Source of the DNA: Candidatus Aenigmarchaeota archaeon LH_S7 | GTDB lineage: Archaea > Aenigmatarchaeota > Aenigmatarchaeia > QMZS01 | DNA: 64,000 bases | Assembly: GCA_023659895.1 (NCBI GenBank) | Contig: JAGXOL010000001.1 | Span: forward strand, 15,757-79,756 | Reading direction: 5' to 3' | Shown here: positions 8,043-63,716 of the stretch, piece after piece | Layout of the letters: every line of letters starts with the position of its first letter | Position numbering within the stretch: position 1 is the stretch's first letter | Position numbers and translations under genes: made by a program | The notes under the pieces: model-generated | What the model saw: the letters and a program-made list of their open reading frames with translations, nothing else | What the model was told of the DNA's origin: nothing | Database searches by the model: none

Positions 8043-8154
8043 GCTGGGGTGGCAGAGTCAGGTTAATGCGGTGGACTCGAGATCCACTGGACCTAGTCCG
8101 CGCAGGTAGGTTTTTCTTGAAGAAAATCCCTGTAATCAAATCCTGCCCCCAGCG
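8043..8154 (+). tRNA. tRNA-Ser(CGA), class II, with a 28-nt intron in the T-loop (8108-8135, after T54)
   Basis: Acceptor GCTGGGG/CCCCAGC, 3-bp D-stem, anticodon arm GTGGA-CTCGAGA-TCCAC, variable hairpin GGAC-CTA-GTCC, T-stem GCAGG/CCTGC with loop split T|...|TCAAAT; exons total 84 nt. Confidence 0.7.
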
Positions 8155-8506
8155 TCTAAGTTTACTATATATGTTTACCCTCACTAAAGAGATAGCAAAA
8201 GAAGGGTAAATATGGAAGGCCAAGACTATTGGGAAGATTATTATAAGAGAAAAGTTAAAAAGATAAATAAAGACAAGAAAATTCTTATAACTTTCTTAAA
8301 AAATAAGAGGTCTGAAAGGGTTGGATATAGAAGGATTATAAGGTGGTTTGCCTTTAGATACAAAAACAACAATTGAGGAAAAGAAAAGAAACTTTAGATA
8401 ATTTAAGTACTGAATCCCTAAAGAAAGATAATGTTAGAGAGGCTTTTAAGGAAGCAATAAAGGAATTAATTAGAGAGAATCCTGATTTGCTGCAGGGATT
8501 GAAACT

Positions 8507-8947
8507 TTAATATTCTTCTTTCACAGTAGATACAATTTCTTCTAATCTTACAGACTGGTCAGGGGATACAGCCTCTGACTTTCCAACTGGCTTATTTATA
8601 AAACAAAGACAAGGTTCCGGGTCTCCCAAAATTTTAAAATTATGTCCACCATGTCTATGTGTAGCTCCACTAACTTTATTAATTCCTTTAATTTTTGATC
8701 GAGTGGTGAGCAACTGCGAACCAAATAAATAATCTCCTTTGGTTGCATGTGGAGTAAATTTATAAACTTTTAATTTTTGTGAAAATTTAGTTTTATTTTC
8801 ATCTGTTGTCTCCTTTTTTATACCACACATAGCATGCTTATATAGTATTATTTTTTTTATACTTTCATGTTCTTTCTGACACTGAGCTTCAAATACTTTT
8901 GATATAATACAGTCATCCACACCTGTAAATTTATTTAAAAAGAACAT
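8507..8947 (-). CDS. hypothetical protein
   Basis: 146 aa ORF, no confident family assignment. Confidence 0.3.
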   Translation of the reverse strand: MFFLNKFTGVDDCIISKVFEAQCQKEHESIKKIILYKHAMCGIKKETTDENKTKFSQKLKVYKFTPHATKGDYLFGSQLLTTRSKIKGINKVSGATHRHGGHNFKILGDPEPCLCFINKPVGKSEAVSPDQSVRLEEIVSTVKEEY

Positions 8948-8949
8948 CT

Positions 8950-9222
8950 TTATTCAAATCTTATTTTTCCTTCTTTTTCTAAATCTTTAAGAATAAAATG
9001 TGCTTCTTCAAATTTAATATTAAATCTATTAGCAATTTGTGAGGTGGTTGGTTTGCCCTTCTCTTTTATAAGTTCAAATACTTTTTGCTTTAATTTTTTA
9101 GATAAAAGTTCTAATCTGTCAGGTTCTGTTGAGAGTATCTCGTTAGGAATTGTTAAAACTAAATTAGAAATATCTGATACATTTGCCAGGTCTGGCACCA
9201 AAACTTGAAAATACTCAAACAT
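8950..9222 (-). CDS. small winged-helix DNA-binding protein
   Basis: 90 aa; C-terminal TTSQIANRFNIKFEEAHFILKDLEKEGKI resembles wHTH recognition helix/wing. Confidence 0.4.
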   Translation of the reverse strand: MFEYFQVLVPDLANVSDISNLVLTIPNEILSTEPDRLELLSKKLKQKVFELIKEKGKPTTSQIANRFNIKFEEAHFILKDLEKEGKIRFE

Positions 9223-9223
9223 A

Positions 9224-9589
9224 TTAACTTTCCTTTTTGTCTACGACTTTTTTCATATCCGGCTCAAAGGATTCTCCAAATTTTTCTATTTCATCAGCCA
9301 ACTTTCTTTTTTCATCTGCAGAGCATTCAAATAAGTTCTGAAGTTTTCTGTTAAGCATAGATGATTTAAGAATAAAGTTTATTAGAATATCTTTTTGTTC
9401 ACTTGTTAATTTTTCAGATATTTCCTCAATTAAATTTGGATTATCTTTTAATTCATCAATTATTTTATAAGCATCCGGGTATTTATCCTGAATATCAGCA
9501 AGTTTTCTAATAGCCATTGAATTACCTTTTAAAAATAAACTATAAAAATCAGTAAAATCAACAAAAAAACTATTATCTATTTCCTTCAT
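9224..9589 (-). CDS. hypothetical protein (operonic with 8950-9222)
   Basis: 121 aa; stop/start 2 nt from downstream gene. Confidence 0.35.
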   Translation of the reverse strand: MKEIDNSFFVDFTDFYSLFLKGNSMAIRKLADIQDKYPDAYKIIDELKDNPNLIEEISEKLTSEQKDILINFILKSSMLNRKLQNLFECSADEKRKLADEIEKFGESFEPDMKKVVDKKES

Positions 9590-9747
9590 AATAATACCTA
9601 TAAAATATTTATAGGTCTATCTAAATTAATCTTCAAACCCTGTTGTTGCCCCAACTTCTTCTTCAATACCATCATCTTTCATAATGATTATTTTAACAGG
9701 TCCTTCAGAATGTTCAACTTCAAATTTCTGTGGGTCTCCTCTGAGTT

Positions 9748-9936
9748 TTGTTGCCGTTTCAAAAAAGTCCTTTTACCGGTATTACTGAGATTATCGAAGC
9801 CTATGAAAAAGATAATCCAATTGATTACAAATCTTTTGGTATTCCAAGAAAGAAATTAAGAGAAGTTCTTTCAACTTATTTTGAAAATCCAGATGAACTT
9901 ATCGACAAAGCACTGAAAGAAGGTATTATTTACTAA
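9748..9936 (+). CDS. hypothetical small protein
   Basis: 62 aa ORF. Confidence 0.25.
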   Translation: MLPFQKSPFTGITEIIEAYEKDNPIDYKSFGIPRKKLREVLSTYFENPDELIDKALKEGIIY

Positions 9937-10235
9937 TCGAGAAGTGGATTTTTAAGAGTTATTTAACTCTTTCGGTTCGTTGTTATCATCTTATTTATCT
10001 TTCTTTTTATATTTGGATTGTCTATAGGACTAAACTTTAAATTTACTCTTAATTTAGAAAATAAATCTAAAAGAAACTAATTTCTAATAGTTGGATATAT
10101 GGTTTTTCAAAGATATCGGTAAGATAATTCCAAAGCAATAGCCAAAGTAGTGAGACACTATATTTATTATATGTCCACCAGAAATAAAAGTGGGTGGAAA
10201 CAAAATCAGTGCTCCAAATAATACGAAATTGGTAG

Positions 10236-10901
10236 TTAAGCCAAAAAGGAGTATATTTTTATTATCCTTTCTTTACTGCTCTTACTTATTTTGAAAAATT
10301 TAAAAAGAGGTTTTTTTATAATATCTCGATTTGGTGCCTCACCCAAAAAGAAAAAAATTGATACTGCTAAAATAACTATAAAAGGTAAACTGCCTATATA
10401 ATAGAGAGCAGGAAAAGAAATATTAAACAAAAATATTGACCACAAAAAAGAAGAATTTAGAGAAATTTTCCACGAGTATTTTATATAATTATAAACAGAA
10501 AAAAGAAGATAACCTAGAAATCCAGCATCAATCGCTGAAAAACCTAAAATAGGTGGAAGATTTGGTAAAGTATAAACAATTAGCAAAGAATTGAGAATTG
10601 GTAGTATTGTAACAAATGTTAAGGTAACAACATAGAGCCTTTTTCTATTATTCTCAAACTTGAAAATCAAGAAGATAAATAAGAAGTAATAGATCAAATT
10701 TCCTGCAAAATGAAAAATCTCAGTATGTACAAAATTTGAGAAGTAAATGCTTATTAAAGTTGGATTTGATGGCTGCAAAATAAAACATTCTTGGGGGAAA
10801 AGAAAAAGAAAATTAAGAAAAAGCGGAATGAAAGTGAAGAAAATTAAATAGTCAATTTTTTGTCTTGGTTTTGTAGAACTATAATTCTTAAGCATTATCA
10901 A
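10236..10901 (-). CDS. polytopic membrane protein, possible CPBP/Abi-like intramembrane protease; last gene of defence operon
   Basis: About 6 predicted TM segments; VHTEIFHFAGN (HxxxN-like); start overlaps PLD-SNF2 stop as ATGA. Confidence 0.45.
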   Translation of the reverse strand: MIMLKNYSSTKPRQKIDYLIFFTFIPLFLNFLFLFPQECFILQPSNPTLISIYFSNFVHTEIFHFAGNLIYYFLFIFLIFKFENNRKRLYVVTLTFVTILPILNSLLIVYTLPNLPPILGFSAIDAGFLGYLLFSVYNYIKYSWKISLNSSFLWSIFLFNISFPALYYIGSLPFIVILAVSIFFFLGEAPNRDIIKKPLFKFFKISKSSKERIIKIYSFLA

Positions 10902-13900
10902 GATATAAAATCAATTGTAACTAATTGCAATTTTGATTTATCAAAAGGTTCAATAATAGGTTTCTTAAATATTCCCTTTTCCATTAAAAAGTTATTCAGT
11001 TCTTCAACCCTTTTCTTCCAATTACCCTCCTTTTTATATTGTTTCCAAATTCTCCTTAGTATCTGCAATCTCTTTTTTGTTAGAGGGATTTTTTGTAATT
11101 TATCTAGTGTAATATCCCATACTCTCTGTATATTATTATCTGAAGGAAATTCTTCTAAATAATCATTAATTTCTTTTTCAATTGAATTAGCCATTTTTTT
11201 TACAAAAGTGGAACTTTTTGATTCGCTATGTTCTTTAAATTTTGTATCACTTTTTTGGCTAGAATATACTTCATTGTAATCTTCTTCTATTTTATTCAAG
11301 ATAGTTCTATTAACCTCATATATCTTCTCAAAGAAATTGGGAATAACCCTCACCTCTTTTTGTTTACAAGCTATGAAATCAATTATCTTTGTTTTACTGG
11401 TTATTATTGAATCTGTATTTATATCATATAAATACCAAAAATGGAAATCTTTACCATATTTGTAATAGAAAAATATGCCCGAAATTTTGTTTTTCTTTAA
11501 TCCACTATAAACACCATAAGGTATCTTTTCCAATTCCTCTAGAGCTTTATTCTTCATGAAATCCTTTAATGGCTGGTAAAATTTCTCACCACCACCAAAA
11601 GCATCTTGTTCTACTTCTGCGAATATTTTGGGATCTTTTCCTTTAATCTTTCTAATAATCCCAAAAACCTTGGGATGAATTTCTTCTCCCAAGATAGTTT
11701 GATCTAACCCTACCGATTTATCAATATCAATAATTTTATTCTGCAGAATTTCAACCAATTTTAGCAACTCTTCTAACTCATCTTCTGGAAAAAAATTGTA
11801 GACAAATATTTTTTTGTAGGGTGAACCAATCCTGTCTATTCTTCCTGCTCTTTGAATCATCCTTGTTGGATTCCAATGCAAATCATAATTAATGAGATAT
11901 TTAGCTGTTTGGAGATTTTGTCCTTGTGACAAAACATCAGTACTCATTAAAATATCAATCTCTTTTTTGAAGAATTTTTCTATAATCTTTTCTCTTTGTT
12001 GAGGATTTTTGTTCGTCAAACCTGAACTCGAAACTGCTTCAATTTTCAGTTTTGAGAATTTTTTATCCTTTATTATTTCATTATAAATATAATTTAAAGT
12101 ATCTGCATAATAAGTAAAAAGAACTATCTGCCCATCTTTTGACAAATTTAATAGTTTATCTTTAAGAACATTTAATTTAGAGTCATCTTCTGGTTTGATG
12201 GTATTTACTTTTTCAAGAATTTTGCTTAATAATTTAATGTCTTTGTCTATATCTCTAAATAAATCTTCTATTTTATAAAGGTCTTTTTCAAAAACGTCAA
12301 GTTTTGTTCCTTCCAAAGATTCGAATTTATCTAAATACTCTTCTATATCCTCCTCACTTATTGATCCAAAATTCTTCAATAACTTACTAAAATCTTTTTT
12401 CCCTAGGATTTTACCTGCTTTTAGGCTCTTCTTTAATTTTTCCAAAAAGTCTATGTGTCTCTTAATGCTTATCCGAAAAGATTCTACACTACTCTCTAAT
12501 CTTTTAAATAAAATTGTCCTGAAAATACCCCCAATCTGAATCATCCTGTTTAAAACAAACATTTCTTCTTCTGTCTTTACCCCTCCTTCTTTATATTCAA
12601 GTAGATGATAATAAGCCATTTTTAGATTTGAAATTATATCAGAAATCTCTTTATACATGCCTTTGTAAGCATTATCTAATTGATAGTTTATGTTTTCAAG
12701 AACTCTTTCCGGAAAAATTATCTTTTTCTGCTCTCCGTTAATCTCTATATAAGCATCAGGATAATTTTTAATAATATAGTCTCTTGTTCTTCTTATTGAG
12801 ATTTCATTTAGTAAGTCATTTAGTAAAGAAGGGTTGTCCTTTGCCTGTTTAAAGAACTTGAATAAATCGGGAATATTTTCTTTAATAAATGAAGATCTAT
12901 CCATCAAGATAAGAAGCATAATCTGCCAGTATAAATCCCAGAGGGTATTGTTTATTGGGGTAGCAGTTAAGAAAAGCATATAAGGTTTTTTACCCTTTTT
13001 AGCAATATTGTCATTAACCAAAGCGAAAAAATTCTCCCACCTGTTTGACAATGGATTTCTGAAATTATGGCTTTCATCAACAACTATTAATTCTACATCA
13101 TCAAATCTTCCGCCAAGAGTTTTCTTTGCTTTTTCTAAGAAATTTTCTGAGGCTAAATTTTCCTGAGACAAAATATTCTCTTTAACATCTATCTTTTTCA
13201 TCTCCTTAGCCCACATCCCCATTAACTGAGCAGGGCAGATTATCAGAATGTTTTTTCTTTCGTAGTATCCTATTCTTTCAAGAATTTTTTTAGCAATCCA
13301 AGTTTTACCTAACCCCACAGAATCAGCAACAATACAACCACCATATTTCCTCAATCTCTTCCATATTCTTTCAATAGCAGCATCCTGAAATTGAGCCAAA
13401 TTTACTTTAGTCTCTGGAAGTCCTTTTGGTTTTTCATTTTTTCCCTCTTCTACAACATCATCTTTTTGAAATTCATACAATGTCTTGATATAGATATCGT
13501 AAGGTAAATATTCCTTGCTTCCAAATCTGGAATTTTCCAAAATTTCTATAAGCTCATCTTTAAAGTCTCTTGATTCTGCCCAGAATTTTTCAAACCATTC
13601 TTTTCTTGTGAAGATTGCCTGGGATTTCTGTTTCCAGGTGTTTAATTCTCCATACCTTGTTAGTCCTGCAGCAGTAAAGTTAGATGAACCAATAACTATC
13701 CTATCATCAAAAATATAGGCTTTTCCATGCAGGAACTTTTCAAATAATCTAATTTCAACATTCTTTCTTTTTAGAAATTCAATAAACAACTTTATTGTTT
13801 TATCCTGCTCTTTTGTTAAATCAAAGCCTTCAATCTCTTTTCTTATTTCCTTTAAAAGAACGTCTCCAAGAGTTGTTTCATTCTGAATTTCCGGGGTTTT

Positions 13901-14095
13901 TCCAAGTAAAAGCCTGAATCTCTCAACACCATTTAAATTATCTTTGATCATGGCAAAAGCCTGAATATTGAAGAAAGCGGTTGCTATGTCAAAATTTGTT
14001 TTTGGATTCTCTCTTAAAACATTATTCAGGAAACTAATCAACTTGTTTCCTTCGCTGTTGTCTATTATTTCTTTTGGTATTGGCATTTTAATCAC
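10898..14095 (-). CDS. PLD-nuclease domain fused to SNF2-family helicase (DISARM DrmC+DrmD-like fusion)
   Basis: N-terminal HxK(x4)D motif HGKAYIFDDRIVIGSSNFT; helicase motifs GLGKT (I), VVDESHNFRN (II), LFLTATPINN (III), C-terminal QGQNLQ / QRAGRIDRIG (VI). Confidence 0.8.
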   Translation of the reverse strand: MIKMPIPKEIIDNSEGNKLISFLNNVLRENPKTNFDIATAFFNIQAFAMIKDNLNGVERFRLLLGKTPEIQNETTLGDVLLKEIRKEIEGFDLTKEQDKTIKLFIEFLKRKNVEIRLFEKFLHGKAYIFDDRIVIGSSNFTAAGLTRYGELNTWKQKSQAIFTRKEWFEKFWAESRDFKDELIEILENSRFGSKEYLPYDIYIKTLYEFQKDDVVEEGKNEKPKGLPETKVNLAQFQDAAIERIWKRLRKYGGCIVADSVGLGKTWIAKKILERIGYYERKNILIICPAQLMGMWAKEMKKIDVKENILSQENLASENFLEKAKKTLGGRFDDVELIVVDESHNFRNPLSNRWENFFALVNDNIAKKGKKPYMLFLTATPINNTLWDLYWQIMLLILMDRSSFIKENIPDLFKFFKQAKDNPSLLNDLLNEISIRRTRDYIIKNYPDAYIEINGEQKKIIFPERVLENINYQLDNAYKGMYKEISDIISNLKMAYYHLLEYKEGGVKTEEEMFVLNRMIQIGGIFRTILFKRLESSVESFRISIKRHIDFLEKLKKSLKAGKILGKKDFSKLLKNFGSISEEDIEEYLDKFESLEGTKLDVFEKDLYKIEDLFRDIDKDIKLLSKILEKVNTIKPEDDSKLNVLKDKLLNLSKDGQIVLFTYYADTLNYIYNEIIKDKKFSKLKIEAVSSSGLTNKNPQQREKIIEKFFKKEIDILMSTDVLSQGQNLQTAKYLINYDLHWNPTRMIQRAGRIDRIGSPYKKIFVYNFFPEDELEELLKLVEILQNKIIDIDKSVGLDQTILGEEIHPKVFGIIRKIKGKDPKIFAEVEQDAFGGGEKFYQPLKDFMKNKALEELEKIPYGVYSGLKKNKISGIFFYYKYGKDFHFWYLYDINTDSIITSKTKIIDFIACKQKEVRVIPNFFEKIYEVNRTILNKIEEDYNEVYSSQKSDTKFKEHSESKSSTFVKKMANSIEKEINDYLEEFPSDNNIQRVWDITLDKLQKIPLTKKRLQILRRIWKQYKKEGNWKKRVEELNNFLMEKGIFKKPIIEPFDKSKLQLVTIDFIS

Positions 14096-15923
14096 TTTTT
14101 ATGCTATTAAAGTAGCTTTTTAAATTTTCTTCTAAAATCTTATAAATGAAATTGAACATGGGCAAATCGTCATAAATGAAATCTAATATTCCAGTACTCA
14201 TAGAGATTAACTTGTACTTTTTTCCATTAGTTTTGACCTCTTTTTTAAAGTTTTCATGTGAAATTTCAGGCACTTCTTCGTTTTCCCCTTCTTCATAAAT
14301 TTCAACTTCTAAACCATCTTTACTTCCGTCACTTAGATAAAAAAACTGAATTTTTGGTGAGTCTTGGAATGACTTATACTCTTCTTTAACATCAAACTTT
14401 ATCATAACTTTTGATATTCCTTTAAATAAAAGTAATTTTTCTTTAATCTCTGGGAAATTATGGGACATCAGCTCAGAGTAAACTTTTGGTAAGCTATCAA
14501 AAAATATCCTTAGGTTATTTTTGACTGCATCTGGAGAAAATGTATTCCATATCCATCCGCTACCATCTTTTAATCTCGAATAGTCTTTCGGCGAATAAAC
14601 TCTATTTATATCTTTAATTTCTCTTGATTTCAAAAATAGAAACATTTCTTCAAATATCTTTAGTGGGAATCTACCATTTCCGATAGGTATTCTTGGGATG
14701 GAATCATTCTGAGTTATTCTTTCTTTTACCTTTTCTTCTACTTGTTTTCTCTCATTATCCATAATCTGGGAGATTAACATGTCTGGATCAAAGTATGGTT
14801 TCCTATACAGGCAATCTGAGTAATTCTTAATTCCATTTCTCTGATTCTTGATTAAGAATTTAATAGCTTCATCCATCCATATAGGTAAATATTTATAAAA
14901 TGCATATTCTATTTCATTAATATTAAATGCATCCTTTTTATCTAATCCCATCTGTTGATGAAATCTATCTATAAAACCAAAAATAAATTCTTTAGCTAAA
15001 AATTCGCTTACATCATGTTTCAATAATCTGTTTTTTAATAATCTAAGCATTTGAGCTTCAACAATTTCTAGTGCATATCCTTTGGGATTAGATTTTATAG
15101 GATTCTCCGCAAAATGTGCTGTAAAGCCAAGTCCCTCTTTCTCTAACTCTCTGTGCAATCCCTCGTTGACCTCCTTAATCTGAACATCATTTTTATTGGT
15201 AGATATGGGATAAAGGGCATAGTGTATCATATTATCTTCAAAACGATAATACGCTAAGCCGACTTTCCATGAGTTTGGATAAAACCTCTTTTTAATAATC
15301 AGGAATTCATTTTCTAGTAGACTATTAAACGAATCTAAGAAGAAATGAATTTTGATAAAGTCATCTTTAACTATTCTCAAAGCAGGATTTGATTTCTCAG
15401 ATAAATTTTTATAAGAGTCCTTTAGTTTATCGTATTCTTTTATCTTCTTTTTATAAGATTCAGTAATCTTTTTCCAGTCTTCAATATAACTACTATTATT
15501 ATCAATGATGTTCTCTTTTTTGAACGTTATAGTTATTGTTTTTTGATCCTCGGTGTGTAACTCACTTATTAATGAATTATTTACATGAATCCAGAAAGAT
15601 TTATTGTGATTGACATCAACACCAATCAGTAAAACCGGATTACAAGTACTGGCCTCACTATAAGAAATAAGCGAGATAGGACATTGTAATTTGTGCTTAT
15701 CCCCATTTTCTGGTAATGTCCTTATTTGAACTTCTAATTTACCAATGGGCGACCTGTTTCCGTTAACTAATTCTACATACCCGTCAATGTTCGGATACTT
15801 ATCACGTTCTTTTATGTCAGCCTTTACTTTCTCATGATTAAGGAGTTTCTTGAAAGTGTCAACTGCTTGAGTTTCTGCTTTATCAGTATTGCTATATGGT
15901 GCAGCTCTAATTTCTTCATTCAT
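14088..15923 (-). CDS. hypothetical defence-operon protein, possible N-terminal PD-(D/E)xK-like (DUF4365-like) domain
   Basis: 611 aa; N-term YPNIDGYVELVNG...IGKLEVQIRT pattern; no ATPase motifs; translationally coupled to both neighbours. Confidence 0.4.
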   Translation of the reverse strand: MNEEIRAAPYSNTDKAETQAVDTFKKLLNHEKVKADIKERDKYPNIDGYVELVNGNRSPIGKLEVQIRTLPENGDKHKLQCPISLISYSEASTCNPVLLIGVDVNHNKSFWIHVNNSLISELHTEDQKTITITFKKENIIDNNSSYIEDWKKITESYKKKIKEYDKLKDSYKNLSEKSNPALRIVKDDFIKIHFFLDSFNSLLENEFLIIKKRFYPNSWKVGLAYYRFEDNMIHYALYPISTNKNDVQIKEVNEGLHRELEKEGLGFTAHFAENPIKSNPKGYALEIVEAQMLRLLKNRLLKHDVSEFLAKEFIFGFIDRFHQQMGLDKKDAFNINEIEYAFYKYLPIWMDEAIKFLIKNQRNGIKNYSDCLYRKPYFDPDMLISQIMDNERKQVEEKVKERITQNDSIPRIPIGNGRFPLKIFEEMFLFLKSREIKDINRVYSPKDYSRLKDGSGWIWNTFSPDAVKNNLRIFFDSLPKVYSELMSHNFPEIKEKLLLFKGISKVMIKFDVKEEYKSFQDSPKIQFFYLSDGSKDGLEVEIYEEGENEEVPEISHENFKKEVKTNGKKYKLISMSTGILDFIYDDLPMFNFIYKILEENLKSYFNSIKSD

Positions 15924-15932
15924 TTTAATTCC

Positions 15933-17270
15933 TCAGTACCCATGAGCTTTTATTACCTCTTCTGTCTTTTTGAATAAGTCTTGATTGTATTCTTCTGTAA
16001 GAGCTTTAAGTTCATTCATCAATTTATTGACATCTTCTGTTTTGATATAACCGTTTTGAAAAAAATCTTCTAATTTGTCATTATCAATAACAGAAATTTT
16101 GTATTCAAAATAAAGTTTTACCAAATGTATTAGTGATTTTAGAGGAAATAATACTACTTTTAGGCTAAAGTCTTTTTCTAATGTTTTTATCATCTGATTA
16201 TCTTTTTTATTATTCAAGTCAAAATCATAAGCGAAGATTATAAAATGGGGAACTTTAAATCTAGAAGTAACATAATCCTTAGTATAGGCTTTAAGATACT
16301 TCCTTATTTGATTTTCGTGTTTTTGTAAAGGTAATTTTCCGCCTTTGTAACTCTTAATTTCTAATGGGATTAACAAACTTGGAGCACTTTTTATTACAAA
16401 TATAACTCCGTCTGGCTGATTTTTTTGGCCTAAAAGCTTTGCATTAAAAAGGGTAATTCTCAATAAGTCAGCTACATATTCTTGGAACTTTTCACCTTGA
16501 ACTTTAGAATTCTCTTTTCCTTTTTGTAACGCATAAGTTTCAATGTTCTGTATTATATCCTTCCAGAATTTTTCAATATCTACTAATTTTTTAGTATCTC
16601 TATATTTTAATTCTAATTCTAATTCTTTTCTTTTTTCTGATATTGACATTTCAATAAGTTTGAATTCTTTTTCAAAGAATTTTTTATCAAAAATCTTTTC
16701 TAAAGTTAGCAAACCGATATCTCCCCTAGAAGATAATGTGGACAGGGTAACTTCTGGACTAAAACCAATAAAGACATGAAAATCTGGAGTGTAGTTTTTA
16801 GACCAGCCTTTTAGAATATAAAGATCATTAAACCCTATTTTTTCTGTTGAAACCAAAACTGAAATCTTGAAAACTTTCCCTTGTAATAGAAATTTGTTAT
16901 TTTCTTCAGCTATGATGCTGTAGCCTTTTAGAAATCTAAGAAATTTTTCTTTAAGATACTGAATTGTTTTTTCTGTATCTAAACCAAATTCTCTAAATGC
17001 AATGTTAGAAATTCTTTTTCCACATTTTTTACAGAATGTAAATTCCATTCCTTCGGAAACACATGCAACACCACCACATTCACATTGAATCTCATATATT
17101 TTAGTAGCTCTAAGCTCCTCTAAATCATTCTTATCAAAGAACTTTATGATGCTATCTCTTTTTACAGATAATTTTCTAGATAATTCTAAGTCTGTAAAAT
17201 GCTTATCTGTTCCTTTGGATAACATTATTGAGGTAAAGATTACATTATCCTTATTCAAGCTCTTTGACAT
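15933..17270 (-). CDS. zinc-ribbon plus restriction-endonuclease-like (PD-ExK) protein
   Basis: CECGG...CKKCG ribbon near N-terminus; C-terminal QPDGVIFVIK...LIPLEIKSYK matches PD-x(n)-ExK nuclease signature. Confidence 0.5.
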   Translation of the reverse strand: MSKSLNKDNVIFTSIMLSKGTDKHFTDLELSRKLSVKRDSIIKFFDKNDLEELRATKIYEIQCECGGVACVSEGMEFTFCKKCGKRISNIAFREFGLDTEKTIQYLKEKFLRFLKGYSIIAEENNKFLLQGKVFKISVLVSTEKIGFNDLYILKGWSKNYTPDFHVFIGFSPEVTLSTLSSRGDIGLLTLEKIFDKKFFEKEFKLIEMSISEKRKELELELKYRDTKKLVDIEKFWKDIIQNIETYALQKGKENSKVQGEKFQEYVADLLRITLFNAKLLGQKNQPDGVIFVIKSAPSLLIPLEIKSYKGGKLPLQKHENQIRKYLKAYTKDYVTSRFKVPHFIIFAYDFDLNNKKDNQMIKTLEKDFSLKVVLFPLKSLIHLVKLYFEYKISVIDNDKLEDFFQNGYIKTEDVNKLMNELKALTEEYNQDLFKKTEEVIKAHGY

Positions 17271-18153
17271 GCTTCAACAAAACCTCCTTCAATTCTTTAA
17301 AAATATCCTTTATCTGTGGACGAAATGTTATTTTACCATTATCATAGAAGCTGATTGGTTTTTTGCTCATGTCCACTTTTTGAGAAATTAACTCTTTAGC
17401 AGATTCTTTAATCTTAATTCCCCTATCTTCAAAAAGCTTCAATGTCTTTTCTACATCAGAGCCTTTTATATGAATTTCATCTGCTCCAGAAAGATTTAAT
17501 CCAGTTGCCTTTACTGATTTGAATCTAATGTTTTTATCTAATTTTCTATATTCCTCTTCATTTATTTTAATCAAGTTTATAGAATCTTCTTTGAGATTAA
17601 AGTGATTTTGAAGTAAATCTTTAACAATTTCAAATTTGTTATAACTACTCGTTCTACATTCTATAATGGATATATCTGAATGATAGATGAAATATAAAGT
17701 GAATGGTCTTCTAAATCTAACATTTATTGGTTCTAATGTATTAGGTTCCTCTACGTTGCTATATTCGTAAGTATGTGAATGAGCATTCACATTAATTATA
17801 CTTTGATTATTCTGGGAAATTATTTTCTGAAATTCAAATATTAAGTCATTATCTTTATCTACAATTTTTTTGCTTTCAATTCCTTTAAACTCTAATTTCT
17901 TGTTTGAATAGGAAAAAAATACAGATCTCTTTTTAAGAAGACTATAATAATTTACGAGATATTCCAGAAGCTGTTTATCTTTTCTATACAATTCATTTAC
18001 AAAATCTTCTTTTTTTCTTGATTTTATGTCTGGAAGTTCCTTTCTTAATCTGCTTATCTTAACAATCTTCAATGCTCTTTCAATTAATTGATTTTTATCT
18101 TTCATCGTCTCAAACTCCCCGCCTTCTCCAATCTCTGCTTCACCAACTCGCAA
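17251..18153 (-). CDS. hypothetical defence-operon protein
   Basis: 300 aa, overlaps flanking genes, no recognised motif. Confidence 0.35.
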   Translation of the reverse strand: MRVGEAEIGEGGEFETMKDKNQLIERALKIVKISRLRKELPDIKSRKKEDFVNELYRKDKQLLEYLVNYYSLLKKRSVFFSYSNKKLEFKGIESKKIVDKDNDLIFEFQKIISQNNQSIINVNAHSHTYEYSNVEEPNTLEPINVRFRRPFTLYFIYHSDISIIECRTSSYNKFEIVKDLLQNHFNLKEDSINLIKINEEEYRKLDKNIRFKSVKATGLNLSGADEIHIKGSDVEKTLKLFEDRGIKIKESAKELISQKVDMSKKPISFYDNGKITFRPQIKDIFKELKEVLLKHVKELE

Positions 18154-21788: not shown

Positions 21789-22010
21789 ATTTGAAACTAC
21801 TATTTCTTATGTTCATTATTTATCAAAAGTTATTTTAAGTGTCATAATATATAAATAAAACTAATATGATTATAGGATAAACATATAGTAAACTTCTTAA
21901 TATACCCCCAGCGAAGCCTTTAAAATAAGGAAGACTATAAAGTGAAGAAAGAATCGACAAAAAGCGAATAAGATTTCTTTTAAATATAATTAAAATACCT
22001 ATTTTTTATC

Positions 22011-24237: not shown

Positions 24238-24268
24238 TTATTTAATTTTAACAGTCTAATTATTTTAT

Positions 24269-24603
24269 AGCCCCGTCGTCTAGTGGCCAAATTCTTCTTT
24301 CTTTAGAAAAAAAGAAGCTTTTGATAGGAAGAAAGAAAAGGAAGGCTAAACTCCCGTTTTGGATGGAACCTTCCTCATAAACCTTGGGTTTATGGGGCCC
24401 CGAAAAACAAGTTTTTCGAGGTTTTAAAAAGGTTCCAGGGTTATGGATGCTGGCCTTTGGATATCAAAGGTTGGAGAAGCTAAAAAATTATTTTGGCTTC
24501 TATGATAGAAGACAGCCAGAGACCGCGGTTCGAATGGAACATCAAAAAGATAAAATTTACCAAATCCAAAAGAAAATAAGTTTCGGGAATCCGCGCGGGG
24601 CTA
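24269..24603 (+). tRNA. tRNA-Gln(UUG) interrupted by three introns: D-loop 24287-24440 (154 nt), anticodon loop 24461-24513 (53 nt), T-loop 24536-24590 (55 nt)
   Basis: Exons AGCCCCG-TC-GTCT-AGTGG | TTAT-GGAT-G-CTGGC-CTTTGG | A-GCCAG-AGAC-CGCGG-TTCGAAT | CCGCG-CGGGGCT-A sum to 73 nt; A1:U72 and anticodon loop CUUUGGA as in archaeal tRNA-Gln. Confidence 0.65.
24378..24437. repeat. conserved about 55-nt hairpin element, copy 1 (inside tRNA-Gln intron 1)
   Basis: GGTTTATGGGGCCCCGAAAAACAAGTTTTTCGAGGTTTTAAAAAGGTTCCA about 90% identical to 28705-28763; internal stem CGAAAAAC/GTTTTTCG. Confidence 0.5.
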
Positions 24604-24956
24604 TTAAATGTGACTTCCTCTCCCTGAATAAATTCAGGAGCTTCCTTAACCAAAACACTGTTTTGAATACAGAAGGCTGGCGAGGTTCTAAAGTCACTAA
24701 CAAAACTTACTATAGCAGAGGTTTTGGTCTGACACGCTTTAGTTTAGGGCTGAGTCACCTTTTTCAGATGCCTTATTTCACTATTGTAGGGTCAGCAACC
24801 CCGTCTTCCAAGATATACCCAGAAGACAATACAGGACATGTCCGTCCATATTTAATTATGTTTTAAAAGTATTAAAGGACAATTGAGCTACACGATTTAA
24901 ATCAGGAGTTTTCTTGCCTTTGGTTAAATATAAATAATTTAAAACAAAATAATTTT

Positions 24957-48899: not shown

Positions 48900-49118
48900 A
48901 AAATAATAAAGAAATTAAGCAAAAAGATTTTACAATACTTAAAGTATTTTTGAATATTATTTTAAGACCTTTAAGATACCTACTAGATTGTGGTCTTGCA
49001 AAAATTATAAATCTAGTGGTTATATTTATAGGTTGATTATATCTACAAATTTAAATTATTACTCCATAATTCAATAAAGGTCTATACATATTATTAATAT
49101 TTTAATCGGTTTTTTTAT

Positions 49119-49348
49119 GGCGGGAGCTGGTCCATAGCGAACTTGCTTTTTAAGTATTAGTAAGTCTGTAAGGATGGAGCAGTTAGGAGTGCTCGTCGAA
49201 CCCTTTTCTCCCTATCGCTCTAAAAGCGTTCACGGAAAAAAAGAGAAATAGGTGCGGAAGGCTCATAAGGACCTTTTTAGAAAGAGGTTCTATCCAAAAT
49301 GCATTTGGGAGACCCGAAGGTCGGTGGTTCAAATCCACCTCCCGCTAT
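49119..49348 (+). tRNA. tRNA gene with about 150 nt of intervening sequence; identity unresolved (tentative anticodon arm GAACC-CTTTT...GGTTC would be Lys-UUU)
   Basis: 3' end GGTGG-TTCAAAT-CCACC-TCCCGCT-A pairs with GGCGGGA at 49119; internal D-arm-like GAGC-AGTTAGGAGT-GCTC at 49177-49194; several extra hairpins. Confidence 0.45.
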
Positions 49349-51092: not shown

Positions 51093-51127
51093 ATAAGTTT
51101 CTAAAGTAAGAAATTATGCGTTGGTGG

Positions 51128-51227
51128 TCTAGATCTTAACAATTTATTGTTTAGAGGACAATGGCATGATACAGCCCTGCCACGGCTGTGACCCGGGTTC
51201 GAATCCCGGCCAACGCAGAACAATTTT
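51128..51227 (+). tRNA. tRNA-Gly(GCC) with about 28 nt of insertion(s) between D-stem 5' strand and anticodon stem (51141-51181 region)
   Basis: GCGTTGG-TG-GTCT...CAGCC-CTGCCAC-GGCTG-TGAC-CCGGG-TTCGAAT-CCCGG-CCAACGC-A; D region is 41 nt instead of about 13. Confidence 0.65.
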
Positions 51228-51309
51228 TTAGGAAAAATTTTCCATCGAAGAGTCCTATGATTAAAAATAAATAAATGACTTCCCTAAATCTATTATTTAT
51301 TAGTTATAT

Positions 51310-51574
51310 GGGGTTGTGGTGTAACCTGGCAGCACTGCTGGCTCCAGTGGAATCTTTTTCTTTAAAAAAGAAAAACCTTCCAGTCAAAAAGAAATAGATT
51401 CCCTTCAGTCAAAAAGAAAATGGAGTTATGACGCTTCGCGGATGAATGAAGAAACCAGCCAATCCCGGTTCAAATGGAACTTTTAGAAAAAGTTCCATCA
51501 AAACAAGCTTTTAAAAAAGCTTGAGCAAAAAAGGAACCTTTTCTAAAAAGATTCTGAAAATCCGGGCAACCCCA
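51310..51574 (+). tRNA. tRNA-Trp(CCA) with two introns: canonical 37/38 (51348-51453, 106 nt) and T-loop (about 51476-51561, 86 nt)
   Basis: Exons GGGGTTG-TG-GTGT-AACCTGGCA-GCAC-T-GCTGG-CTCCAG | A-CCAGC-CAAT-CCCGG-TTCAAAT | CCGGG-CAACCCC-A give a 73-nt cloverleaf. Confidence 0.7.
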
Positions 51575-61317: not shown

Positions 61318-62024
61318 TTTATTTTAAATTCCCCATAACCCTTTTCACTCTTTATTTTAGAGATAACTTTGTTTGCTTCTTCTTCCAAAAGTTTCTCTCC
61401 CTTTTTAGGGTTTTTGGTCTTTAATTTTATTAAGAATTTTGAATCCCCTAAGTAAGATGCTTTCGCATTTTTCATTTCATTCAAGCTATTTTTTATAATT
61501 TCTATTCCATTACCTTGCTCAGAATGTAATTCCAGAGTGCCTTTAAACTCATATTCTTTTTCCCCTGTTTTGAATCTTTCCACTAATCCCTTAAATTCTT
61601 CTCCAAGACCTAAATCTTCCCCTTCTCTAAGTTTTTTGATAGCATTAAACAAGCTTCCATGCTCTTGCTTAAGGTTTCTGATTGTCTCATCAACTAACTT
61701 AGGTTTTATCTTGTTTTCCTCAGCAACTTTTTTGAACGTTCTTTCCATCTTCCTTTCCTTTCCGTAATCCTTTAATTTCTTTTCTTTGTGGTATTTAGAA
61801 ACTCCCTTCAGGGAAAGTTCAGTTGTATGATCTGTCTTCAGAATCTTACAAACAATTAATTGTCCTTTTCTAAAAGACTTTCTTATATTTCTTATCCACA
61901 ATCCTGGGATATTTGAAACATTCAACAAACCTTTCATTTCATATTCAAGAATCTTAACTTCCACAGAATTACTGTGAACTTCTTTAATCTCTCCAACAAC
62001 TAATTCCCCTTTTTCAGGTTTCAT
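61314..62024 (-). CDS. eif2a: translation initiation factor aIF2 alpha subunit
   Basis: N-terminal S1 domain GELVVGEIKEV...WIRNIRKSFRKGQLIVCKILKTD...LSLKGV as in a/eIF2-alpha. Confidence 0.65.
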   Translation of the reverse strand: MKPEKGELVVGEIKEVHSNSVEVKILEYEMKGLLNVSNIPGLWIRNIRKSFRKGQLIVCKILKTDHTTELSLKGVSKYHKEKKLKDYGKERKMERTFKKVAEENKIKPKLVDETIRNLKQEHGSLFNAIKKLREGEDLGLGEEFKGLVERFKTGEKEYEFKGTLELHSEQGNGIEIIKNSLNEMKNAKASYLGDSKFLIKLKTKNPKKGEKLLEEEANKVISKIKSEKGYGEFKIN

Positions 62025-62062
62025 AAATTAAATTTCTTAATTTTAATAACTTATTTTCCAAA

Positions 62063-63022
62063 TTATTTTAATTTTTCAATCTCTTCCTCCACATTCATTT
62101 CTTTTACTTGGTTAACAATCATCTCCAAATCCCCAAAATATTCATTTTTCTTCACTCTTCCCATGAATAATCTTTCCTTGCCAACCAAGTTTTCATTTTT
62201 TATTTTTTCCGCGGTCTCCCTGAAACTTACGAAACGAAAAGCAGAAGTACCATCATCTAAATAACCGCGAAGAATCAGATTTTTTTTGGGCTCAACCTTT
62301 CCATGGTCTTTACAAACTTGGCTTCCATTAATTTCTTCAAGCTTTGCACCACATTGAGGACACGTAACAAATTCCTTTTCAGATGTTGAAACCACGGCCC
62401 CTCTTATTTCTGGAAAATCATTTTCCTTTAGATCTTTTAAGTTTTTTCTTTCAACCAAACTCTTGTACATCTCTTTTGGTTTCTCTTTTTCTTCTGTAAC
62501 CTTAATTTCTTTATCTTCCTTATCCAAAGTACTGCTTCTCCCCATGTGGATTTCTGGCATCCCAAATGTATTCGCTTTGGTGAAACCATTCTTTACTCTT
62601 ACTGTTTCACCTTCTTTGAAATCCTTGAGCAAATCTGTTTTATCATTCCAGAAAACAACTCTAATTTTTCCTGTTTCATCACCAATGTTAATGTGCTGAA
62701 CCTTACCTTTCTTACCTTTTCTTTCAAATTCATTTAATTCAGAAATATCAAGAATTTTTCCAACAATTTCCATACTTTTCATCCTAGGTATTATATTCTT
62801 TATTTTCAAAGTTCTGTCTTTTTTTTCTAATAAATCAAGACCCTCTTCCTTAGCAATTATATAAGCAGCTCCTTCCTCAGAAACAAGATTGGATAATTCA
62901 AGAACCTTTTCCTCAATCTTTTTTTCAACATCCTCTTTTGATAAATCTGTTTCATTCACAATTTTGTTTTTCAATTCCTCAAGTTCCATAATTAAGTTAA
63001 AAAATTTAATAATTATGTACAC
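62063..63022 (-). CDS. RPA-like single-stranded DNA-binding protein (OB fold + C-terminal zinc ribbon)
   Basis: OB-fold region (GKILDISELNEFERKGKKGKVQHINIGDETGKIRVVFW) and CPQCGAKLEE...CKDHG ribbon. Confidence 0.6.
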   Translation of the reverse strand: MYIIIKFFNLIMELEELKNKIVNETDLSKEDVEKKIEEKVLELSNLVSEEGAAYIIAKEEGLDLLEKKDRTLKIKNIIPRMKSMEIVGKILDISELNEFERKGKKGKVQHINIGDETGKIRVVFWNDKTDLLKDFKEGETVRVKNGFTKANTFGMPEIHMGRSSTLDKEDKEIKVTEEKEKPKEMYKSLVERKNLKDLKENDFPEIRGAVVSTSEKEFVTCPQCGAKLEEINGSQVCKDHGKVEPKKNLILRGYLDDGTSAFRFVSFRETAEKIKNENLVGKERLFMGRVKKNEYFGDLEMIVNQVKEMNVEEEIEKLK

Positions 63023-63386
63023 TTATAAAAAAGGTTATAGAGCGGAAAAAGAGCTGATTAAATTACTTACAAGTCTTGATTACGCGGTTTTGAGAGCCCC
63101 AAAATCAGGAAAGGACACAATTGATATTATAGCTTGCAAAAGAGGCCAGATTTTCGTTTTTGAGTGCAAGTTCTGGAAGTCCAGAGTGGGGATCACAGAT
63201 AGACAGTTGAATAGCTTGATTGATTTCTCAGAGAAAGCAGGGGCTATTCCATTAATAGCCTTGAAATATGAGAATGAGGGTTGGAGATTTTTGAGAGCAG
63301 AGGATGTTCAGGAAAACAATGGTACTGTTTCAGATGAACTTCTCAAAGAAAAAAGTTTCTCAGTGGATTTTTTTGAGAGATATTAA
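63015..63386 (+). CDS. hjc: Holliday junction resolvase Hjc; listed ORF over-extended, start at MYTYKKGYRAEKEL
   Basis: GYRAEKELIKLL...DIIACKRGQIFVFECKFWK...GAIPLIALKYENEGWRF matches archaeal Hjc catalytic core. Confidence 0.8.
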   Translation: MYTYKKGYRAEKELIKLLTSLDYAVLRAPKSGKDTIDIIACKRGQIFVFECKFWKSRVGITDRQLNSLIDFSEKAGAIPLIALKYENEGWRFLRAEDVQENNGTVSDELLKEKSFSVDFFERY

Positions 63387-63462
63387 GATTTTGTTAAATT
63401 ATTAATCAGTTTTGGATGTAACTTTCCTGTTTTTGGCTGAAGCCTTTTCCATGGAAAACTTC

Positions 63463-63716
63463 TGGGCTGGGGCAGATTTTCAAATTATTTTTCTTTTGGA
63501 GTTGGTAGACCTTTTCTTTCTAAAAGAAAAGGCATGCCTTTGAACTGCCGATCTTCGCCTTTCTCTTGTTTTTGGATGAAATCTCAAAGCATTGTAACTA
63601 CAAATTTATTATTTTCGTAGTTACCTTACTTTGTTTCTAAAAGGTTTTCTGTAAGGGCGACGTCCTAACCAATTATCTCCATAGTGATTTTCACTAATGG
63701 TCTAGACCACCAGCCC
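63463..63716 (-). tRNA. tRNA-Val(UAC) with three introns: D-loop (plus 63672-63701, 30 nt), canonical 37/38 (63561-63649, 89 nt), T-loop (63477-63538, 62 nt)
   Basis: Minus-strand exons GGGCTGG-TG-GTCT-AG | TGGTTA-GGAC-G-TCGCC-CTTACA | A-GGCGA-AGATC-GGCAG-TTCAAA | T-CTGCC-CCAGCCC-A sum to exactly 73 nt with fully complementary stems. Confidence 0.8.

Follow-up and report, generated by a model that had tools for sequence, protein, structure and literature searches.

All six tRNA genes of the window, by which we mean the whole 64-kb stretch of DNA analysed here, are interrupted, and these loci are very probably functional genes transcribed as long precursors with archaeal introns that are spliced by proteins. 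We found the six loci by scanning for an acceptor stem together with a T stem. They encode tRNA-Ser(CGA), tRNA-Gln(UUG), an initiator-like tRNA-Met(CAU), tRNA-Gly(GCC), tRNA-Trp(CCA) and tRNA-Val(UAC). The genes contain 13 insertions of 28–154 nt, from one to three per gene, and the mean of 2.2 per gene describes these six genes only and not the genome. Summed over the six genes, 845 nt are inserted and 450 nt are exon. A relaxed scan of the window and a check of G+C-rich islands in its intergenic gaps gave no further convincing tRNA candidates. The G+C content is 24–43% in the introns versus 58–66% in the spliced tRNAs; that of the genome is 31%. Most introns contain a T-run/A-run palindrome. 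TTAT or ATAT stands immediately 5' of position 1 in each of the 16 genes inspected, and this holds for the displaced first exon of tRNA-Met too. The named homologues, with 54–65% identity, belong to Candidatus Aenigmarchaeota/Aenigmatarchaeota, and the host, judged by sequence, is a DPANN archaeon close to Aenigmatarchaeota.

A sequence-only reading had claimed that every tRNA locus of the window is interrupted, with recurrent hits in the D-loop, the T-loop and 37/38. It was right on both points. The insertions lie at 37/38 (four), T-loop 59/60 (three), T-loop 54/55 (one), D-loop 15/16 (two), 21/22, 29/30 and the 5' acceptor strand between 4/5 and 7/8 (one each), which gives three in the D-loop, four in the T-loop and four at 37/38. 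The placement of the tRNA-Gln D-loop site after AGTGG had to be corrected: the intron follows AGTGGCCAA, at 21/22, and comparison with the relative L014 shows that GTGGCCAA in the D-loop is exon. Beyond the sites listed in that reading, tRNA-Met has two more interruptions, one at 29/30 and one in the 5' acceptor strand.

When the insertions were removed, ARAGORN called all six genes end to end as canonical cloverleaves with the expected anticodons and with lengths of 84 nt for Ser(cga), 73 for Gln(ttg), 75 for Met(cat), 71 for Gly(gcc), 73 for Trp(cca) and 74 for Val(tac). We looked at the junctions for the bulge-helix-bulge (BHB), a 4-bp helix between two 3-nt bulges, counted as strict when both flanking helices are present and as relaxed when one is. 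The motif lies in the exact expected register at 12 of the 13 junction pairs (six strict, six relaxed); for some boundaries, where several registers were equivalent or nearly so, the choice was guided by the BHB. At control position pairs, a BHB or relaxed BHB was scored in about 5% of cases, and a strict one in 0.05–0.3%. The pattern of junction motifs is far beyond chance. The minimum-free-energy fold recovered the 4-bp central helix at 4 of the 12 junctions tested. Splicing in silico of nine interrupted genes of relatives likewise gave canonical tRNAs, with the BHB in register for most.

Two other kinds of disrupted gene were rejected. Split or permuted tRNA genes are ruled out, since in all six cases the exons are collinear, in the right order and at one locus, with a span of 100–335 nt. 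Group I and group II self-splicing introns have a conserved catalytic RNA core and are usually longer than 200 nt; the insertions of 28–154 nt gave no match to an Rfam intron family at E-values up to 10.

Structure of the interrupted genes

The tRNA-Ser gene (8043..8154, forward strand) consists of exons 8043-8107 and 8136-8154, and position 8043 is the 5' end of the first tRNA gene of the window. The Rfam tRNA model scores it at 39.4 bits, with a gap of 34 nt in the T-loop. Its 28-nt intron at T-loop 54/55 (8108..8135, forward) has a relaxed BHB with a 4/4 central helix, a 2-bp inner helix and no outer one, and the minimum-free-energy fold recovers the central helix. The intron is missing in the relatives L014 and L015, and the T-loop of the uninterrupted L014 orthologue has the junction that was predicted for the window gene. 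The variable arm carries a compensatory change versus a relative.

The tRNA-Gln gene (24269..24603, forward), found by the acceptor and T-stem scan, has four exons (24269-24290, 24445-24460, 24514-24534 and 24590-24603, forward) that are 100% identical to those of L014. Intron 1, of 154 nt, lies at the D-loop end, 21/22 (24291..24444, forward), and has a relaxed BHB with a central helix of 4/4 and an inner helix of 2 bp; at this site L014 has an intron of 57 nt. Intron 2 (24461..24513, forward; 53 nt) is at the canonical 37/38 position with a strict BHB (helices 5/4/5), and its homologue in L014 is 75% identical. Intron 3 (24535..24589, forward; 55 nt), at T-loop 59/60, also has a strict BHB (helices 5/4/3).

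The initiator-like tRNA-Met gene (49119..49347, forward) has exons 49119-49125, 49175-49198, 49260-49267 and 49312-49347 on the forward strand, which match those of L005 at 93% identity. Its spliced form is collinear with the intronless gene of L007. Intron 2 (49199..49259, forward; 61 nt) interrupts the anticodon stem at 29/30, where L005 also has an intron, and intron 3 (49268..49311, forward; 44 nt) lies at 37/38; both have a strict BHB. Intron 1 is different. This 49-nt insertion in the 5' acceptor strand (49126..49174, forward) has a boundary that can be drawn anywhere from 4/5 to 7/8 with the same product. No BHB was found in registers 5/6 to 7/8, and in register 4/5 a relaxed BHB forms only if two nucleotides of the 5' leader are paired. 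Intron 1 lacks a convincing BHB.

The tRNA-Gly gene (51118..51217, forward; exons 51118-51132 and 51162-51217) has a perfect acceptor stem of 7 bp. Its intron of 29 nt at D-loop 15/16 (51133..51161, forward, with a 3' boundary uncertain by 2 nt) has a relaxed BHB (central 4/4, inner 3 bp), and the whole core is visible in the minimum-free-energy fold. The intron is shared with L005, where it is 79% identical, and with L007, where it is 45 nt long. The tRNA-Trp gene (51310..51574, forward; exons 51310-51347, 51454-51474 and 51561-51574) has two introns, both of which are present in the L005 and L007 orthologues. Intron 1 at 37/38 (51348..51453, forward; 106 nt) has a relaxed BHB (central 3/4, outer 5 bp), and its 3' third is kept in three genomes. 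Intron 2 at T-loop 59/60 (51475..51560, forward) has a strict BHB with helices 5/4/3; it is 86 nt long in the window versus 244 nt in the 99%-identical NCBI strain.

The tRNA-Val gene lies on the reverse strand (63463..63716), and its 5' end, position 63716, is that of the last tRNA gene of the window. The exons are 63716-63702, 63672-63650, 63560-63539 and 63476-63463, all on the reverse strand. Intron 1 (63673..63701, reverse; 29 nt) lies at D-loop 15/16 and has a strict BHB, with the central helix present in the minimum-free-energy fold. Intron 2 (63561..63649, reverse; 89 nt) at 37/38 has a relaxed BHB with a central helix of 3/4, an outer helix of 5 bp and no inner helix, and this junction resembles a bulge-helix-loop. 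Intron 3 (63477..63538, reverse; 62 nt) at T-loop 59/60 has a relaxed BHB (central 4/4, outer 5 bp).

Intron turnover and rival explanations

We compared the exons and introns with those of relatives. Versus a relative whose proteins are about 80% identical, identity is 93–100% in the exons and 34–79% in the introns. Intron content varies: tRNA-Met has three, at least two, one or no introns across four genomes (it is intronless in L007, and in L009 the 59/60 intron stands alone), tRNA-Ser has one or none among close relatives, and tRNA-Gln of L014 has a fourth intron. Exons are conserved and introns diverged or absent in relatives; thus, the genes are very probably functional, and the introns come and go.

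These data bear on the possibility that insertions have broken these loci, which would be decaying pseudogene copies of working tRNA genes elsewhere in the genome. Such decay would suit tRNA-Met, which has an intron 1 without a convincing BHB and G1.U72 in place of the A1-U72 of its relatives; this one gene could be decaying. A genomic hairpin repeat that sits in a tRNA-Gln intron and in an intergenic spacer would also suit it. For the set as a whole, however, we consider decay very improbable, because the exons are far better conserved than the introns, three or four genomes share the interrupted loci as syntenic orthologues, the spliced products are all perfect cloverleaves with a BHB at 12 of the 13 junctions, and each of the six tRNAs occurs only once within the 64 kb.

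Some introns are related to each other: the Val-59 intron is homologous to Gln-59 and to Trp-37, and Met-37 is similar to Trp-59. For the Gln-59 and Val-59 introns, and again for the Trp-37 and Val-59 introns, none of 2000 control segments gave a similarity as high; for Met-37 and Trp-59, 3 of 2000 did. Related introns occur in different tRNAs and at different positions, the pattern read as "intron transposition" in Thermoproteales, where near-identical introns are found in different tRNAs and positions according to PMC4090602 and PMC8450103. There are also repeats. A 49-nt double-hairpin repeat in Gln intron 1 (about 24372-24420) recurs between genes at 28700-28755 and also, in the NCBI strain, within a Trp intron, where a 36-nt unit is tandemly repeated. 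Together with the palindrome seen in most introns, these repeats could mean that what interrupts the tRNA genes is miniature mobile elements or simple AT-rich repeats that have nothing to do with EndA splicing. This is still less probable than decay. The repeat lies inside introns and not at their ends, the junctions are in BHB register at sites classical for the BHB (37/38, 59/60, 29/30), and a search with a stringent pattern for the hairpin most frequent in the introns found no copy elsewhere in the window.

An artefact of assembly or binning of the metagenome-assembled genome is the least credible explanation: two Logan contigs end within the Trp 59/60 intron, and the length of this one intron, 86 nt in the window versus 244 nt in the NCBI strain, may be mis-assembled, but the NCBI assembly and two run assemblies made independently have the same interrupted genes, and diverged relatives from other samples are interrupted too.

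Proposed splicing mechanism and gene annotation

For spliced introns in functional genes, we propose the following mechanism. Each gene would be transcribed as a long precursor with one to three introns. The last exon nucleotides before the 5' splice site would pair with the last intron nucleotides before the 3' splice site, forming the 4-bp helix flanked by two 3-nt bulges. EndA would cut both bulges, and an RtcB-type ligase would join the exons. Over short evolutionary times, introns are gained and lost, grow by tandem duplication and take in a small hairpin repeat, with the exons under selection. The sequences show the interruptions, the cloverleaves after splicing, the junction motifs, the conservation of exons versus the divergence of introns, and the homology between introns; the cleavage, the ligation and the enzyme we infer. 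Position 59/60 is the geometric twin of 37/38: each site lies between the sixth and the seventh base of a 7-nt loop on a 5-bp stem, and this geometry fits with the related intron sequences at both sites.

Relaxed motifs require a splicing endonuclease of broad specificity. About half of the junctions are relaxed, with one flanking helix missing, so the enzyme must tolerate such motifs, and the relaxed specificity proposed in the sequence-only reading is supported to this extent. The same reading took the enzyme to be of the (alpha-beta)2 or epsilon2 type, for which we found no support. An (alpha-beta)2 EndA is encoded by two genes (alpha and beta), and an epsilon2 EndA by one three-unit gene of about 390 aa. 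No EndA gene was found in the window by Pfam scans or in the gene tables of the fetched loci, and no RtcB gene in the window or these loci. A database query with the ARMAN-2 EndA unit gave no match attributable to an Aenigmatarchaeota-like lineage. Several DPANN lineages with many disrupted tRNAs have an alpha4 EndA with an extra "L3" loop, and the subunit type contributes least to EndA substrate recognition (Kaneta et al. 2018, PMC5829648). In DPANN archaea, specificity is therefore not set by subunit type.

Standard tools perform poorly on these genes. ARAGORN reported a single gene in the window, at the Gly locus and with wrong boundaries (51145-51216), and with introns allowed it called this locus tRNA-Pro(agg). 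Rfam at the gathering threshold found only tRNA-Ser (8043-8154). Together, the two programs had one of the six genes right and failed on the other five, as expected from the earlier claim that standard pipelines would miss or mis-call most of them. In a public gene call, the phosphoglycerate kinase (PGK) gene is extended across tRNA-Ser. In a relative, tRNA-Met was called as Lys. Genome-quality standards make use of tRNA counts, and DPANN metagenome-assembled genomes will seem to lack much of their tRNA set. Hidden interrupted tRNAs also yield wrong isotypes (Gly as Pro, Met as Lys), and adjoining protein genes may be over-extended across unseen tRNAs.

Known archaeal systems and significance

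Multi-intron tRNAs have been described in the Thermoproteales Pyrobaculum, Caldivirga and Thermofilum (Sugahara 2008 and Fujishima 2010, as summarised in PMC4090602 and PMC8450103). As portrayed there, they have in common with the window several BHB introns per gene, non-canonical sites in the D-arm, T-arm, anticodon stem and acceptor, and strict and relaxed motifs side by side. In contrast to these hyperthermophilic members of TACK, the window host belongs to DPANN with 31% G+C, and its long, AT-rich introns reach 154 nt, and 244 nt in the sister strain. The load of 2.2 introns per gene, over six genes, compares with a Thermoproteales mean of 0.84 and a record of 1.54 in P. calidifontis (PMC8450103). 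Split or permuted tRNAs of Nanoarchaeum equitans, Caldivirga and Thermofilum, one of them a DPANN example, also undergo BHB-type processing (PMC3218864), but the exons in the window are collinear and in the right order at a single locus.

In a different superphylum, the complete genomes of the Asgard archaea Atabeyarchaeia and Freyarchaeia have introns in 92–95% of tRNA genes; more than half of the genes are multi-intron, often at non-canonical sites, and some intron-bearing tRNAs were missed by tRNAscan-SE and found manually (Valentin-Alvarado 2024, PMC11291895). Within DPANN, ARMAN-2/Micrarchaeota, Pacearchaeota, Woesearchaeota and Nanohaloarchaea show more tRNA disruption, linked to an EndA with extra loops, and prediction left their tRNA sets incomplete, which implies that some disrupted genes stayed hidden (Fujishima 2011, PMC3239211; Kaneta 2018, PMC5829648). 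Aenigmatarchaeota lie outside both papers, and the literature searched held no description of tRNA introns in them. The "strong lineage marker" of the sequence-only reading is too strong, because intron content varies among close relatives, and Asgard lineages and Thermoproteales have published loads just as high (PMC11291895, PMC8450103).

A bolder reading is that this is the heaviest tRNA-intron load yet seen, with interruptions in essentially all genes, a mean of about two introns and a maximum of four (tRNA-Gln of L014), together with active intron evolution and BHB-less removal of at least one intron, that in the acceptor strand of tRNA-Met. Under it, tandem duplication and the insertion of a small palindromic repeat would make intron lengths differ between 99%-identical strains, and introns would shift between the equivalent 37/38 and 59/60 sites. 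If true, removal of the BHB-less intron would mean an undescribed splicing specificity or an alternative pathway of 5'-end formation. We regard this reading as rather unlikely.

The window is a genuine example, at very high density, of a phenomenon already known in other archaea: similar loads are on record for Thermoproteales, for some DPANN lineages and for Asgard archaea. It leaves the known splicing mechanism unchanged. Aenigmatarchaeota join the few lineages in which the interruption of tRNA genes is nearly total, and in their close strains and species the gain, loss and duplication of introns and their spread between 37/38 and 59/60 can be followed.

Interrupted tRNA genes and their surroundings

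All six tRNA genes found in the window are interrupted. We looked for acceptor stems of 7 bp next to T stems of 5 bp and obtained six loci with tRNA-like 5′ sides. Five are on the plus strand, starting at 8043, 24269, 49119, 51118 and 51310, and one, starting at 63716, is on the minus strand. The loci at 8043 and 63716 are the start and end of the interval in which the sequence-only reading had claimed that every tRNA is interrupted. No further credible tRNA in the window came from a relaxed stem scan or from looking for short islands of high G+C content between the genes. We take the six genes to be its full set, save any too fragmented for the scans. The exon boundaries were set from the cloverleaf and from orthologues, and 13 insertions were then excised. 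Excision restored the cloverleaf, and ARAGORN called each spliced product end to end: Ser(cga) of 84 nt, Gln(ttg) of 73 nt, Met(cat) of 75 nt, Gly(gcc) of 71 nt, Trp(cca) of 73 nt and Val(tac) of 74 nt. Thus, the claim was borne out for 6/6 genes.

The tRNA-Ser gene has a single 28-nt intron at 54/55 (8108–8135). The tRNA-Gln gene has three, of 154 nt at 21/22 (24291–24444), 53 nt at 37/38 (24461–24513) and 55 nt at 59/60 (24535–24589). In tRNA-Met, a 49-nt insertion in the 5′ acceptor strand (49126–49174) is followed by introns of 61 nt at 29/30 (49199–49259) and 44 nt at 37/38 (49268–49311). The intron of tRNA-Gly is 29 nt long and lies at 15/16 (51133–51161); those of tRNA-Trp are 106 nt at 37/38 (51348–51453) and 86 nt at 59/60 (51475–51560). 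On the minus strand, tRNA-Val is interrupted by 29 nt at 15/16 (63701–63673), 89 nt at 37/38 (63649–63561) and 62 nt at 59/60 (63538–63477). Together, the genes contain 845 nt of intron and 450 nt of exon. The G+C content is 24–43% in the introns and 58–66% in the spliced tRNAs, and the 3′ CCA is encoded in none of the six genes.

It had also been claimed that standard pipelines would miss or mis-call such genes. This holds for ARAGORN and Rfam. On the unspliced sequence, ARAGORN reported only one tRNA-Gly (51145–51216) with a wrong acceptor stem, and when introns were allowed this locus turned into tRNA-Pro(agg). The Rfam tRNA model passed its gathering threshold at 8043–8154 only, leaving a gap of 34 nt in the T-loop; a partial match at 51154–51210 was below the threshold. 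Mechanical ORFs cross tRNA-Ser (6814–8223, minus strand) and part of tRNA-Gln (24384–24866, plus strand). In the former, the phosphoglycerate kinase (PGK) domain begins only at residue 75. The public gene call on the Logan contig also runs PGK across tRNA-Ser, in a long form of 469 aa, compared with 402–403 aa in relatives. This call illustrates how a protein is over-extended when a tRNA goes unrecognised.

The window has a G+C content of 31% and carries archaeal housekeeping genes, including those for the DNA polymerase D small subunit, PCNA, NFACT, ribosomal proteins, aIF2-alpha and RNase HII (Pfam scans). The Logan assembly of run SRR14170872 contains DNA identical to the window, and contig JAGXOM010000001.1 of NCBI assembly GCA_023659905.1 (hereafter the NCBI strain) is 99.2–99.6% identical. 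For two window proteins, the closest named homologues (54–65% identical) come from Candidatus Aenigmarchaeota/Aenigmatarchaeota, a DPANN phylum. A scan of the genome collection with a ParA-like protein matched only an unrelated bacterium and gave no species-level relatives.

An intein with LAGLIDADG homing-endonuclease and HTH domains interrupts RNase HII (46782–48899, 705 aa); the orthologues of this enzyme in three relatives (L005, L007 and L009) have 182–218 aa and no intein. There are two TnpB-like genes with a Cas12f1-like TNB domain (22466–23590 and 34576–35649). The first lies between a 120-aa ORF and TIM and is absent from that site in the related contig L014. A minus-strand gene block of about 13.7 kb (8200–21900) adjoins tRNA-Ser. 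It encodes a winged-helix protein, a PLD+SNF2 helicase (10898–14095), a DUF4365 protein (14088–15923), an Eco57I/MmeI-type methylase (18102–21788) and two unknown genes. In L014, which lacks the block, PGK, tRNA-Ser, the 120-aa ORF and TIM are adjacent. The block resembles a defence island that has been inserted, of a restriction-modification or DISARM-like kind. Integration at tRNA-Ser would predict a second copy of the 3′ end of this gene on the far side of the block, and none was found.

Splice-junction motifs and the presumed splicing enzyme

In the known anticodon intron, position 32 pairs with the third-last base of the intron, and we used the bulge-helix-bulge (BHB) register that this pair implies. 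The central helix joins four exon bases, the last of them two before the 5′ cut, to four intron bases that stop two before the 3′ cut. The bulges are of 3 nt and are cut after their second base; the outer helix pairs exon with exon and the inner helix intron with intron. A strict BHB with both flanking helices is present at 6/13 junction pairs (Gln-37, Gln-59, Met-29, Met-37, Trp-59 and Val-15, named by gene and position). Four more (Ser-54, Gln-21, Gly-15 and Val-59) combine a fully paired 4-bp helix with a single flanking helix, and two (Trp-37 and Val-37) have three of four central pairs and a 5-bp outer helix. Only the first insertion of tRNA-Met has no motif. Of control position pairs, taken from these sequences or from randomly drawn segments of the window, about 5% gave a motif of any class and 0.05–0.3% a strict one. 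The excess of BHB motifs at the junctions is far beyond chance. It remains so after allowing for the few boundaries that were picked from several registers with an identical or almost identical product. Minimum-free-energy folding recovered the weak 4-bp central helix at 4/12 junctions tested, a result that neither strengthens nor weakens the BHB case. In tRNA-Gly, a strict BHB also exists at pre-tRNA positions 18/39, but splicing there would not yield a tRNA, and the register was rejected for this reason. Register 15/45 gives a canonical D-loop, with the 3′ boundary of the intron uncertain by 2 nt.

By the scheme of archaeal tRNA splicing (PMC4090602, PMC12397907), the endonuclease EndA would cut both bulges and an RtcB-type ligase would join the exons. 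Because a flanking helix is missing at about half of the sites, a broad-specificity enzyme would be needed. The relaxed-specificity endonuclease proposed in the sequence-only reading is, to this extent, a fair inference; the alpha2beta2 or epsilon2 type that it named would be a candidate only. EndA and RtcB genes were found neither in the window nor in the fetched loci of relatives. A database search with the ARMAN-2 EndA alpha unit gave 45 matches, none attributable to Aenigmatarchaeota; the M. jannaschii EndA reference sequence agrees with PDB entry 1A79. For several DPANN lineages with many disrupted tRNAs, Kaneta et al. 2018 (PMC5829648) reported an alpha4 EndA with an extra L3 loop, and they concluded that substrate recognition depends least on the EndA subunit type.

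The first insertion of tRNA-Met can be placed at 4/5, 5/6, 6/7 or 7/8 with an identical product. A relaxed motif exists in register 4/5 only and needs two paired bases of the 5′ leader. Reading the insertion as two nested introns, with a strict, all-AU/GU BHB at 35/59, was rejected because this would delete the conserved U8-G9. Its similarity to the upstream region in L005, expected if it held an ancestral promoter, is weak (z = 2.3; 20/500 shuffles score as high). Directly before position 1, TTAT (ATAT twice) stands in 16/16 tRNA genes examined from seven independent families of the window and its relatives. In the window, it occupies 8039–8042, 24265–24268, 49115–49118, 51114–51117 and 51306–51309 on the plus strand and 63717–63720 on the minus strand. 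An AT-rich TATA-like sequence lies about 20–30 nt upstream of the 16 genes. The tetranucleotide may serve as initiator element of leaderless tRNA transcripts such as those of Nanoarchaeum, or it may be an RNase P context. Were the transcripts leaderless, the sole BHB register found for the first tRNA-Met insertion could not form. At position 1 (49119), the initiator-like tRNA-Met has G1·U72 in the window versus A1-U72, the pair typical of archaeal initiator tRNAs, in L005, L007 and L009. The G1·U72 pair and the motif-less insertion leave room for this tRNA-Met to be impaired.

Conserved exons and drifting introns

Contigs of relatives were reached via neighbouring proteins. L005 and L014 come from one sample and belong to a relative with about 80% protein identity to the window; L007 has about 71%, and L009 and L015 are more distant. 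In the 80% relative, tRNA-Ser is intronless, and its T-loop junction is that of the product predicted for the window. The tRNA-Gln of this relative (L014) has the three window introns and a fourth at 15/16. The fourth intron shows that GTGGCCAA is exon, so the window intron of the Gln D-loop lies at 21/22 and not after AGTGG. This is one of two positional corrections to the sequence-only reading, whose observation is otherwise confirmed; the other is that tRNA-Met is also interrupted at 29/30 and in the 5′ acceptor strand. The same relative has the 29-nt intron in tRNA-Gly, both introns in tRNA-Trp, and in tRNA-Met the 29/30 intron, followed 3′ of the anticodon by one or two short ones. In L007, tRNA-Met is intronless, the D-loop intron of tRNA-Gly has 45 nt, and tRNA-Trp has two shorter introns (39 and 19 nt). 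In L009, the only intron of Met is at 59/60, and Val(GAC) is interrupted in the D-stem and in the T-loop. In L015, Ser is intronless and Arg(UCG) carries an intron at 59/60. Across the clade, 15/18 tRNA genes seen are interrupted. In L016, a more distant relative with 44% G+C, no tRNA was found within 20 kb.

Between the window and the 80% relative, the exons are 93–100% identical, whereas homologous introns are 34–79% identical. The variable arm of tRNA-Ser shows a compensatory change from GGAC/GTCC to GGGC/GCCC. Given these identities, the compensatory change and the presence or absence of introns, the loci are genes conserved by selection; the insertions evolve fast and can be dispensed with. 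In such comparisons, this is the behaviour expected of spliced introns and not of pseudogenes.

Some introns are related to each other. Gln-59 and Val-59 have in common a stretch of about 38 nt, including TACCAAMTCCAAAAGAAAA, that occurs nowhere else in the window. As controls for similarity, we used 2000 real AT-rich window segments. None matched the level of Gln-59/Val-59 or of Trp-37/Val-59, and 3/2000 matched that of Met-37/Trp-59. The 37/38 and 59/60 sites are structurally equivalent: both come after base six of a loop of 7 nt, and the stem below the loop has 5 bp. This equivalence may explain why related introns occur at both.

The introns also change in length. The Trp 59/60 intron has 86 nt in the window versus 244 nt in the NCBI strain, with equal BHB ends. 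The longer version contains a 36-nt unit, GGAACTTTTAGAAAAAGTTCCAGCAAAAAAAAGAAG, in 3.4 tandem repeats (4164–4285 of the strain's locus, L001), and, within a hairpin loop, an inserted double-hairpin element of 49 nt (4286–4334). The element is palindromic, CCTCATAAACC..GGTTTATGGGG CCCCGAAAAAC..GTTTTTCGAGG. It recurs inverted in the Gln 21/22 intron of the window (24372–24420; about 88% identity over about 80 nt), and a shortened copy lies in an intergenic spacer (28700–28755). Its behaviour is that of a small mobile repeat. An exact pattern scan of the metagenome collection gave no other copy of the 49-nt element. A pattern for the Trp 5′ exon matched nothing there, though it fits L007; therefore, the collection evidently lacks such records. 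Two Logan contigs stop inside the Trp 59/60 intron, exactly at its hairpin, so the 86-nt intron may have arisen as a variant or by collapse in the assembly. The commonest intron hairpin (GGAAC..GTTCC) was rejected as a genome-wide module, since a stringent pattern for it gave one match only. The window, L005 and L007 share a conserved segment in the Trp 37/38 intron (51418–51450 of the window, GGAGTTATGAS...RATGAWTGA); outside the segment, the intron diverges. The TGGAG of the segment is complementary to CTCCA of the anticodon loop, and Rfam gave no match there. By analogy with euryarchaeal tRNA-Trp introns, the segment may be a C/D-box-like or k-turn guide.

Intron load in comparison

The window has 13 introns in six tRNA genes, a small sample. 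Archaea overall have 0.21 introns per tRNA gene, Thermoproteales 0.84, and Pyrobaculum calidifontis 71 in 46 genes (PMC8450103). With four predicted introns, the L014 tRNA-Gln exceeds the "up to three" of that paper. In the Asgard groups Atabeyarchaeia and Freyarchaeia, introns occur in 92–95% of tRNA genes, more than half with several (PMC11291895). Thermoproteales show the same pattern as the window, including related introns in different genes (Fujishima 2010, cited in PMC4090602). The idea that such density is a strong lineage marker was overstated. The literature searched contained no description of tRNA introns in Aenigmatarchaeota. The window introns are a known kind of archaeal intron in a new phylum. 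They make a dense, well-supported case with strain-level intron dynamics and one intron without a recognisable motif.
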